Below, in pieces: positions 43,084-44,513 of a stretch of DNA of 64,000 bases. Source of the DNA: Candidatus Latescibacterota bacterium (GTDB taxonomy: Bacteria; Latescibacterota; UBA2968; UBA8231). The DNA lies in assembly GCA_965261395.1 (NCBI GenBank), contig OZ253462.1:4480001-4544000 (forward strand), read 5' to 3'. Within the stretch, counting starts at the first letter, position 1, and the number at the start of each line of letters is the position of its first letter. Below the pieces are notes generated by a model. The model was not told the DNA's origin. It did no database searches and was given only the letters and a program-made list of their open reading frames with translations. The position numbers were made by a program, and so were the translations under genes.

Positions 43084-43109
43084 CTAAAAATCGGGCCATA
43101 GGTTCAAAC
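43084..43109 (-). CRISPR. Degenerate, truncated second CRISPR repeat
   Basis: CTAAAAATCGGGCCATAGGTTCAAAC matches 44134-44159 at 24/26 positions. Confidence 0.75.
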
Positions 43110-43188
43110 ACCAAGGGAAACGAAAAGCGGGGCAGACCAAGGCCCCTAGGCAGTGAACAACTACTATACTAGCGTGCAGCAGACATAA

Positions 43189-44063
43189 CTAGATCACATC
43201 GGAAAAAGTAAAATCCCAGCCTGTATAGTCTCTGGTCAGCATTTGCAGTACCGTGATAACGGTCTGCTTATAGTCGCGGAGCAATTCGTGCGGGGCTAAA
43301 AACTGGCTTGTCCTAGGGTCATGTTCTGTTAAGCGTGCCCGTTGCATCAGGGGCTTGTTGTTCATATTGTCGTCGTAAGGGCGGAGTACAACTCCTACGT
43401 TGGCAATATGGGGGTCGGGATCGGGCCTTGTTATCCTTATAGAATTCCCCTCCGGGCTTCCCCAATACCTAATGGTCTTATGAACCGGGTCCAAGTAAAC
43501 ATCGACAGGCGATAGATTGTTGTGGAGCGTGACGTTCCGATAAAAATGTATCGCACTCAACCGTTCTACATAGGGACCCCATTGAACGTAAGCCGGTTGT
43601 AAGGAGCATACCGTAGTGATTTGGTCCGGAGAAAGCCCCTTAAGATCGGCGGCCTATCTTTTTTTAAAGGCCTCCATTTGCGCTTTGTGCTTTTCTTGGT
43701 CGTTTGATGACTTTTGGGGGGCTTCCTCTATCTGTACTTGCTCTTCTGTTATGGGGAACCTGGACCTAGCCCCAGGTTCTTTATTGTTGGCATAGGCACA
43801 GAATCGGACCGTATAGTCCAGTATGGATCGTAGGCAGGCTATCACCGATCCGACTTCTACGCCGATAAGAGCCAAGTCTTTGGGACCCTCCGGATATAGT
43901 GCGTTATAGTCTGTGCTAATATCCTCGATCTCGCTTAAGGGGCGGCCCAAAATAGCCTTTCGTATTGAGCTATTTGGGGTAAGCGAGCTGATACGGACTT
44001 GAAACTCGCCTCTATATGGAGATACAACTCCTGCATCCATGCTTCTTCGCGTTGAGGGTCCAT
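43189..44063 (-). pseudogene. HEPN-like protein gene with a frameshift near 43935 and an amber stop at 43654
   Basis: AAGGAG RBS, ATG 44063 (MDPQREEAW...); ORFs 43654-44040 and 43189-43560 share a frame across one TAG; motifs 'G..I..LRSILDY', 'FPI', 'LQP', 'RNVTLH' (Rx4H). Confidence 0.6.
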
Positions 44064-44122
44064 AGTCTAATCTCCTTATAAAAACCAGAACATGGCACCT
44101 ACTGGCTGACGAATGATTTGGG

Positions 44123-44159
44123 ATTTCAATCCCCTAGAAATCGGGTCATAGGTTCAAAC
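44123..44159 (-). CRISPR. Single full-length 37-bp CRISPR repeat (type III-like)
   Basis: Minus strand GTTTGAACCTATGACCCGATTTCTAGGGGATTGAAAT: ATTGAAAN 3' end and CCC..GGG stem; cas6 stub ~230 bp upstream. Confidence 0.78.
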
Positions 44160-44340
44160 TGGGCAAGGTTATCTATAAATCTAATAACCTCCCAAGGCTT
44201 TGTTGCATGAAAACCGGCTGGTTATGTTGGCCCCTGTCGCCTGTAGTTTACGCGCCTTTGTCTAGCGGATAGGACGCCGGTTTCCCTAGATGGAGCAGCC
44301 GGTTGAGTAGGGCACAGCCCATGGGTTAAGTATCCCCTTG
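44160..44340 (-). promoter_or_regulatory. Putative CRISPR leader
   Basis: Non-coding stretch, AT-rich next to the repeat, between cas6 stub and first repeat. Confidence 0.45.
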
Positions 44341-44387
44341 GGAAGCGCAACATAAGGGCCCAGAAGTAGGGATTCTTCCAAAAGGCT

Positions 44388-44513
44388 TCATAGAGTGTGG
44401 CCGAAAGCCCCCCTAAAGGTCGAGCTCTTGTAGGAGGGCAACTGCAATCTCTCGACTACCGTCATCTCCAAGCGGAAGCGGGCATAGCGGATTTTACGCA
44501 GTTCGTCCAGCAT
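44388..44513 (-). pseudogene. cas6: N-terminal stub of Cas6-type CRISPR endoribonuclease
   Basis: MLDELRKIRYARFRLEMTVVERLQLPSYKSSTFRGAFGHTL*, matching the 'LP.Y.GS..RGAFG..L' N-terminal motif of Cas6 RAMPs. Confidence 0.72.

Follow-up and report, generated by a model that had tools for sequence, protein, structure and literature searches.

Within a 64,000-nucleotide (nt) stretch of a Latescibacterota genome (the window; G000:C1:4480001-4544000 on the 6.55-Mb single contig of the studied genome G000), two CRISPR repeats bracket a whole, broken gene with a predicted HEPN-like fold, close to a stub of cas6. Based on our analysis, this region is very probably a decayed type III-A CRISPR-Cas locus, in which a foreign HEPN-fold gene was inserted in the last spacer of a dying array. 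Nothing at the locus is a working unit now, and the main value of this result is negative, since the striking repeat-gene-repeat picture represents one state of CRISPR-Cas decay. The full, half-deleted and fully deleted forms found at this one site across the genus provide a clean natural record of type III-A loss, including its overwriting by insertion sequence (IS) elements, toxin-antitoxin modules and foreign genes in sponge-associated Latescibacterota.

Read in the order of the minus strand, the locus and its flanks contain the following features.

45100-46119, minus strand: aldo-keto reductase gene (Pfam Aldo_ket_red, E 2.8e-70), the conserved upstream anchor, whose 3' end is 88-93% identical in relatives
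44562-44855 and 44794-45069, plus strand: BrnT toxin and BrnA antitoxin open reading frame (ORF), respectively (Pfam BrnT_toxin 1.4e-26, BrnA_antitoxin 6.2e-19)
44388-44513, minus strand: 5' stub of cas6, 41 codons and a TGA (PADLOC Cas6), with homology continuing upstream for about 10 nt more, to 44523
44322-44387: stretch of 66 nt that separates stub and IS fragment, with no match elsewhere in the genome or the fetched loci
44195-44321, minus strand: 127-nt 3'-terminal fragment of an IS5-family element (last ~24 transposase codons and right end)
44160-44194, minus strand: spacer-sized remnant of 35 nt between the IS end and repeat 1, unique sequence
44123-44159, minus strand: repeat 1, a complete 37-nt CRISPR repeat ending ATTGAAAT
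44064-44122, minus strand: 59 nt with the ribosome-binding site AAGGAGA, of which the first 48 nt are absent from the contigs of the intact homologue
43189-44063, minus strand: HEPN-fold pseudogene of 875 nt, with a 25-nt deletion near 43964 and a TAG at 43654-43656
43129-43146, minus strand: terminator-like hairpin followed by a T-run (a consensus match only), between the stop codon of the gene and repeat 2
43084-43109, minus strand: repeat 2, reduced to its first 26 nt (24 of them as in repeat 1), with the 3' 11 nt gone
42956-43081, minus strand: 3' fragment of a HAD copy (last ~26 codons and downstream spacer), 2 nt from repeat 2
42677-42904, minus strand: DUF433 gene (Pfam DUF433, E 4.9e-27)
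41925-42644, minus strand: HAD-family gene, complete, which forms the conserved anchor on the downstream side; the trailer of the array leads directly into HAD in relatives
Beyond the complete HAD gene in this reading order: short-chain dehydrogenase gene

The gap between stub and repeat 1 amounts to 228 nt, that between gene and repeat 2 to 79 nt, and the two repeats are 1013 nt apart; all coordinates and counts that an earlier note on this DNA had given for stub, repeats, gene and gaps were reproduced exactly. The guanine-plus-cytosine (GC) fraction lies at 0.47-0.53 from about 42650 to 45100, compared with 0.60-0.66 outside.

Evidence for decay comes from the same site in related genomes. 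The 2.55-kb island was compared with the 31 genomes of the genus, among them G000; the matching intervals were fetched and their repeats and flanking genes mapped. In G018 and G043, the reductase gene is followed by cas6, the other cas genes and an unbroken array (66 or 154 repeats), whose last repeat lies 16-35 nt before the start of HAD. The layout in G006 is the same, except that the genes of a group II intron reverse transcriptase and of Cas02710 (Csm6-HEPN) part the array from a solitary terminal repeat. In G001, G012 and G019, one repeat is left between reductase and HAD, and the trailer after it (cactc...) is that of G018. What G045 retains is a cas6 stub and, after 530 nt, one repeat together with a YbjQ gene; in G004 a cas6 stub adjoins a truncated HAD. 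The reductase/HAD interval is empty in G011, G020 and G002, where the gaps measure 14-16 nt. Repeats 1 and 2 of the window have the 5' variant GTTTGAAYYTATGACCC, which is that of the relatives' solitary repeats and not that of the large arrays. From this common variant and the series of states among the relatives it follows that the aldo-keto reductase/HAD interval is the ancestral home of the CRISPR-Cas locus and the window one more state of its decay. The runs holding related sequence were sponge and marine metagenomes.

Residual CRISPR loci after cas loss, with orphan or solitary repeats and cas pseudogenes, are described for Escherichia in the excerpted text of PMC2886076 and PMC3903273. 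The locus resembles such remains in that one site carries the full system in some relatives and a stub or single repeat in others. It differs in that a protein-coding gene lies between two surviving repeats and in that the deletion ends within the first 8-41 cas6 codons in four genomes.

Two observations concern the interval in individual relatives. The inserted genes of G006 are located at L033 6432-9666 and encode a reverse transcriptase/maturase of 599 amino acids (aa) and a Cas02710-type Csm6-HEPN protein of 495 aa. In G018, the dehydrogenase gene that lies downstream of HAD has a degenerate repeat (L031 1271-1307) 2 nt ahead of its ATG, and the HAD gene is thus bracketed by the last repeat of the array and this degenerate repeat, 1082 nt apart.

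The bracketing sequences were taken for CRISPR repeats in the earlier note, which named a 37-mer outside every CRISPR repeat family as one possible refutation. The 37-mer does belong to such a family: in G000 itself, an array of 64 repeats at C1:315552-320443, beside an intact type III-A operon, is of the family of repeat 1. Upstream of this array we found an AAA-ATPase/PD-(D/E)XK gene, cas6, a gene for a CARF-sigma54 regulator, cas10, csm2-5, DUF433, CARF-RelE and cas1. Repeat 1 agrees with the repeat of the 64-copy array at 30/37 positions overall and at 24/26 over its 3' part, and the core CCCGATT..TAGGGGATTGAAAC is common to arrays of 33-154 repeats in G018, G043, G006, G046 and G021. Searching the window for the 37-mer at <=3 mismatches gave one match, compared with none in 100 shuffles, which exceeds chance. 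Spacers of the working array measure 37-48 nt; a regular spacing of 30-50 nt was not found at the locus, where only two copies occur, 1013 nt apart, the second cut to 26 nt. The only Rfam match in 42500-45200 was CRISPR-DR35 on repeat 1, with 21.4 bits, which is below the gathering score. In the metagenomes, arrays of repeat-1-like sequences with 33-36-nt spacers are abundant in runs X16 and X2.

Repeat 2 stops after ...GATTTTTAG and is without GGGGATTGAAAT, including half of a small CCC/GGG stem. The cut made by Cas6 enzymes of this kind lies 8 nt from the 3' end of the repeat. Because the missing 3' 11 nt would hold this cut site, repeat 2 is unable to serve as a Cas6 site. Since the terminal repeat of the relatives is followed by the trailer and a whole HAD gene, the junction between repeat 2 and the HAD fragment reads as a deletion scar; the fragment itself (42956-43081) is 85-86% identical to 41878-42002. 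With regard to the neighbouring genes, relatives carry HAD-DUF433 or HAD alone, and G022 carries DUF433-HAD. The DUF433 segment 42777-42913 is 93% identical over 137 nt to G000:C1:312571-312707, located between csm5 and CARF-RelE of the working type III-A operon.

The stub had been named as cas6, and this assignment was confirmed. It matches PADLOC Cas6 at E 3.4e-9 over about profile positions 2-39 of 296, followed by the TGA and unrelated sequence, and its translation agrees with the N-terminal end of the intact Cas6 of G000 at 32 of 41 positions. It is not a full-length Cas6, whereas the full-length paralogue elsewhere in G000 scores E 1.3e-109; Cas6 matches in G000 occur only at 0.30 and 4.52 Mb. 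At the DNA level, the stub is 82% identical to the working cas6 (302861-302989), including nucleotides just upstream of the start. Because of its divergence from the working gene at both the protein and the DNA level, the stub is not a fresh copy of it. A cas6 5' stub followed by a solitary repeat recurs in four genomes, namely in L027 (G011:C1:4636490-4636577), L028 (G001:C1:4156173-4156211), L035 (G045) and the window, with stub lengths of 13, 8, about 27 and 41 codons, respectively. Fusion of stub and repeat is exact or nearly so in G011 and G001, where a gene begins 0-17 nt further on. These deletion ends within the first 8-41 cas6 codons in four genomes may reflect selection to retain the cas6 promoter for downstream genes.

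The sequence upstream of repeat 1 had been interpreted as a leader, which our analysis does not support. The 228 nt in question consist of 66 nt without matches, the 127-nt IS5-family 3' fragment and the 35-nt spacer-sized remnant. About 30 genome matches to the fragment (44195-44321) at 72-76% are the 3' ends of a 1186-nt element, and the assignment to the IS5 family is based on this homology to the end of an element with a DDE transposase. The 1186-nt element (G000:C1:1704853-1706037) encodes a transposase of 336 aa (DDE_Tnp_1_5, 7e-39; DDE_Tnp_1, 1e-22) and has 27 further matches, giving about 28 copies. Since the 11 matches listed are 99.9-100% identical, it has been active recently. A miniature inverted-repeat transposable element was considered for 44195-44321 and dropped, as the fragment is the end of the 1186-nt IS. 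The 35 nt before repeat 1 are unlike the 120-nt leader common to the working array of G000 and the array of G018. When 44160-44194, 44064-44122 and 43110-43205 were compared with the fetched loci and the genome in search of spacer remnants, only chance 11-15-mers were found.

Read through with X at the TAG, the bracketed gene showed a single match in a collection of 5.8 billion proteins, namely P0002, an intact protein of 295 aa that is 92% identical. Among 1.84 billion representatives, five matches were obtained at E <= 0.001. Relative to P0002, the gene has lost 25 nt after codon 33 (near 43964), and TGG has become TAG at 43654-43656, where P0002 has W. The 2355-nt contigs of runs X15 and X16, which stem from other studies, contain both breaks unchanged and show 0 differences. 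As the breaks are identical in contigs of these two other runs, they are not assembly errors. Two intact paralogues, 31-35% identical, are located in G000 at 4.06 and 6.21 Mb, and the HEPN-fold family was detected in 8/168 genomes of the phylum at E <= 1e-5. No family in Pfam, NCBIfam, PADLOC or PHROGs was assigned to the gene or its relatives, a protein atlas at 0.90 contained unnamed clusters only, and scans of genome contigs and metagenome contigs with P0002 found no relative. Within the searches run, this is a family without a name comprising only a handful of proteins.

For insights into the fold we relied on a structure prediction. The AlphaFold model from a 9-sequence alignment (predicted local distance difference test 73, predicted template modelling score 0.75) is a helical bundle with a low-confidence insert at residues 190-262. 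A wide search with VIA-align placed entries titled HEPN at ranks 1, 3, 4, 6 and 8 (Z 10.9-8.1), with a HEPN toxin, Csm6 and LsoA lower; Z values below about 13 can reflect a generic helical bundle (HEPN entries matched: 4nqf 10.9, sacsin HEPN 9.3, 2hsb 8.9, 1wol 8.4, AbiV 8.1, HEPN toxin 7.0, Csm6 6.8). Foldseek against PDB returned nothing at E <= 0.001, and a PDB profile search with the family gave only chance rows (E >= 0.29). In the Rx4H motif RNVTLH, R184 is invariant in 9/9 sequences and the histidine is present in 8/9, the exception being the most distant member, L008. Because of the HEPN-titled fold matches and the conserved Rx4H motif, a HEPN-like fold is the best reading of the model, and the earlier description of the gene as HEPN-like is borne out. 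With stand-alone HEPN proteins (AbiV, the HEPN protein of HEPN-MNT, the HEPN domain of Csm6) the family has in common the helical bundle and an Rx4H motif, whose arginine is invariant among the family members. It differs from them in having no sequence-family match, in its size of about twice a minimal HEPN domain, in the low-confidence insert and in that no partner gene is found between the repeats. Most likely, the intact gene encodes a stand-alone HEPN ribonuclease (RNase) of defence or toxin type, and the protein would accordingly be expected to cleave RNA.

The composition of the gene sets it apart from its surroundings, with a GC fraction of 0.47-0.50 (about 49%) versus 0.60-0.66 (about 62%) in the flanks. 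It was not among the matches listed for the other 30 genomes of the genus. The sponge-metagenome contigs of X2 and X4 carry an intact copy with about 96% DNA identity; their alignment is confined to 43206-44074 and shows 36 letter differences and 25 gap letters. The remaining 415 + 734 nt (X2) and 144 + 1594 nt (X4) do not align to the window at 80% likeness, and the unit common to the window and both contigs is the gene with 11 nt upstream. In X2 and X4, the bins 44172-44338 were without cover, and the gene contigs did not extend onto the flanks of the window. Due to the low GC content, the missing match in the genus and the near-identical copy with other flanks, the gene is a foreign import.

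Taken together, these findings can be arranged in a sequence of events, the order of which is tentative. A type III-A locus would have been located between reductase and HAD, and an IS5 element would have been inserted near the trailer end of its array, just upstream of the second-last repeat. A large deletion from cas6 codon 42 into the IS may then have removed everything up to the last spacers, after which a BrnTA module would have been inserted upstream of the stub. Next, a foreign segment of ~1 kb, comprising the HEPN-fold gene with its own ribosome-binding site and the terminator-like hairpin, would have entered between the last two repeats, most likely by insertion into the last spacer. 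Through a later deletion, the last repeat was presumably joined at its middle to the 3' end of a HAD copy, and the gene itself decayed via the 25-nt deletion and the change of TGG to TAG. G006, which likewise has insertions between array and terminal repeat, supports an insertion. According to the excerpted text of PMC11837452, Tn7-like elements insert into spacers, 4/11 of them between the last two repeats, and repeats are the integration site of a phage. The arrangement resembles that of such array-inserting elements (Tn7-like transposons; phage PhiAP1.1), as far as the same excerpts describe them, in that an insertion into a spacer close to the trailer end has an intact repeat on either side. 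It differs in that the 1-kb insert is without transposase, element ends or target duplication, and the sole transposase trace is the IS5 fragment upstream of repeat 1. A simple insertion into an ordinary spacer, which the earlier note had kept as its fallback, is the reading favoured by the decay series, the foreign character of the gene and its unbracketed homologues. Of the further outcomes that the note had named as refuting its idea, homologues without flanking repeats were observed at the loci checked. IS ends or target duplications were not found around the insert, but deletions and insertions in a locus undergoing decay account for the anatomy.

Several findings weigh against the insertion of a foreign gene into the last spacer. 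No transposon ends, target duplication or recombinase accounts for the entry of a lone 1-kb gene; apart from the CRISPR repeats, 43110-44122 is bracketed by neither inverted nor direct repeats, and the flanks of the insert are unique. Between the repeats and the block in common with the metagenome contigs lie 48 and 96 nt, more in sum than one spacer. The flanks of the intact homologue were judged only by non-alignment at 80% likeness, which a diverged repeat could escape. Finally, paralogue 1 in G000 has a repeat-like 25-mer downstream. This 25-mer is 19/25 identical to the repeat core, ends GGATTGAAAC and lies on the strand of the gene, 63-92 nt past its stop codon; the corresponding 37-mer starts 63 nt after the stop (G000:C1:4059892-4059928; L009 1335-1371, minus strand) and agrees at 23/37 positions overall. 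Only three such 25-mer matches occur outside the main array in 6.5 Mb, namely repeat 1, the motif of paralogue 1 and one inside an oxidoreductase gene. By its position alone, the motif is unlikely to be due to chance, and the link of the HEPN-fold family to repeats may not be pure accident. However, low-GC islands favour AT-rich matches like this 25-mer, and the 5' half of the motif is poorly conserved.

It is mainly because of this motif that we keep some probability on a capture of the gene through the repeats, either as an oversized 'spacer' integrated by Cas1-Cas2 with duplication of the repeat, or as a gene-plus-repeat cassette that recombined with a chromosomal repeat. We consider such a capture unlikely, even though the insert is bracketed exactly by two direct repeats (24/26 identical), no transposon ends were found and a working Cas1 of the same system family is encoded in the genome. 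The motif of paralogue 1 is similarly placed past the stop codon (63 nt compared with 79 nt), and the repeat-1-like arrays of co-resident organisms (joints with 33-36-nt spacers, X2 and X16) would offer possible recombination partners. Against this, the prespacers that Cas1-Cas2 integrases measure out are tens of bases long. Repeat 1 does not occupy the leader-proximal position, the 35 nt upstream of it being unlike the conserved leader, and the two repeats already differ at 2/26 positions. Moreover, the block in common with the intact homologue leaves 48 and 96 nt to the repeats on its two sides, and the motif is absent at the other 8 family loci. The 3' untranslated regions of the window gene and paralogue 1 are not significantly alike, as 2.7% of shuffles score as high. 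A broader version of this idea, in which the repeats of these sponge symbionts are recombination or integration sites that capture single-gene cassettes (a gene with its own repeat), the 5' end of whose messenger RNA (mRNA) could be trimmed by the resident Cas6, with the HEPN-fold family as such a cassette, has in our view a slim chance of being correct.

HEPN effectors are typical companions of type III systems, and the gene could accordingly have been an accessory gene between the main array and a short second one, each of which has since shrunk to one repeat. The Cas02710 (Csm6-HEPN) gene between the array and the solitary terminal repeat of G006 would fit this. We nevertheless regard two collapsed arrays as very doubtful. 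In the intact loci of G018 and G043, a single array runs without interruption to HAD, the gene is not listed at this site in any relative of the genus, and its protein is without CARF domain or known family match. The paralogues (4.06 and 6.21 Mb) are located far from the Cas6 matches (0.30 and 4.52 Mb), and the low GC content together with the near-identical copy in other flanks points to a recent import.

A Cas6-gated toxin or addiction module, as proposed in the earlier note, is highly improbable. In such a module, the HEPN mRNA would derive from the transcript of the array, Cas6 would cut or destabilise it at the repeats on either side, and the toxin would be set free once Cas6 is lost. 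Repeat 1 is complete, its 3' 26 nt match the repeat of the working array at 24 positions, and an intact Cas6 is present, so that cutting of repeat 1 in trans is plausible; likewise, no strong promoter match was found between repeat 1 and the start codon, and the HEPN fold of the product would suit a toxin. Yet searches of proteins, genome contigs, metagenome contigs and the phylum revealed no intact cas6-repeat-gene-repeat locus. We checked nine other family loci, namely both G000 paralogues, G011, G019 and G030 within 1.5-8 kb, and G009, G041, G138, G122 and again G030 within 6 kb; none (0/9) was bracketed by repeats and none lay beside cas genes. The intact homologue in X2 and X4 does not share flanks with the window at 80% likeness, and the supposed leader upstream is IS debris. 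Excision at both repeats, as originally proposed, does not fit a second repeat that has no cut site and is preceded by a terminator-like hairpin. The idea that loss of cas genes forces loss of the toxin fails as well, because Cas6 and a repeat with a near-identical 3' half are still present in the genome while the gene is dead, the opposite of what the addiction logic predicts.

The known system closest to such a module is CreTA, in which, according to the excerpted text of PMC9458426, the small RNA toxin CreT is repressed by Cascade guided by the repeat-flanked CreA RNA. It shares with our locus degenerate repeats outside the normal array, adjoining cas genes and tied to a toxin. As described in these excerpts, however, CreTA represents effector-guided repression of a small RNA toxin and not Cas6 cutting of a protein-coding mRNA. 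The locus studied here contains the gene of a 295-aa protein, no CreA-like guide was identified in it, its system is type III-A and all of its parts are broken.

Apart from the repeat-like motif, the surroundings of the two paralogues showed further features. In the group of paralogue 2 (L006, L007, L012), a conserved ORF of 100 aa precedes the gene, which may be DUF4258-like, and a helicase-like ORF follows directly after the gene in L012 and L006. Paralogue 1 (L009) overlaps a gene pair that, judged by eye, resembles YefM/YoeB.

The BrnT/BrnA pair upstream of the cas6 stub is an inserted toxin-antitoxin module, and copies of the same module, 85-88% identical, are present at other sites in G018, G001 and G045. 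The longest BrnA ORF overlaps BrnT by 62 nt (44794-44855); since the Pfam match begins only at residue 27, the true start of BrnA is probably an internal ATG near 44845. In co-resident strains represented in runs X15 and X16, the end of the reductase gene is joined to the start of DUF433 (window 45098 / 42914) with 27 nt between them, and the whole island is missing.

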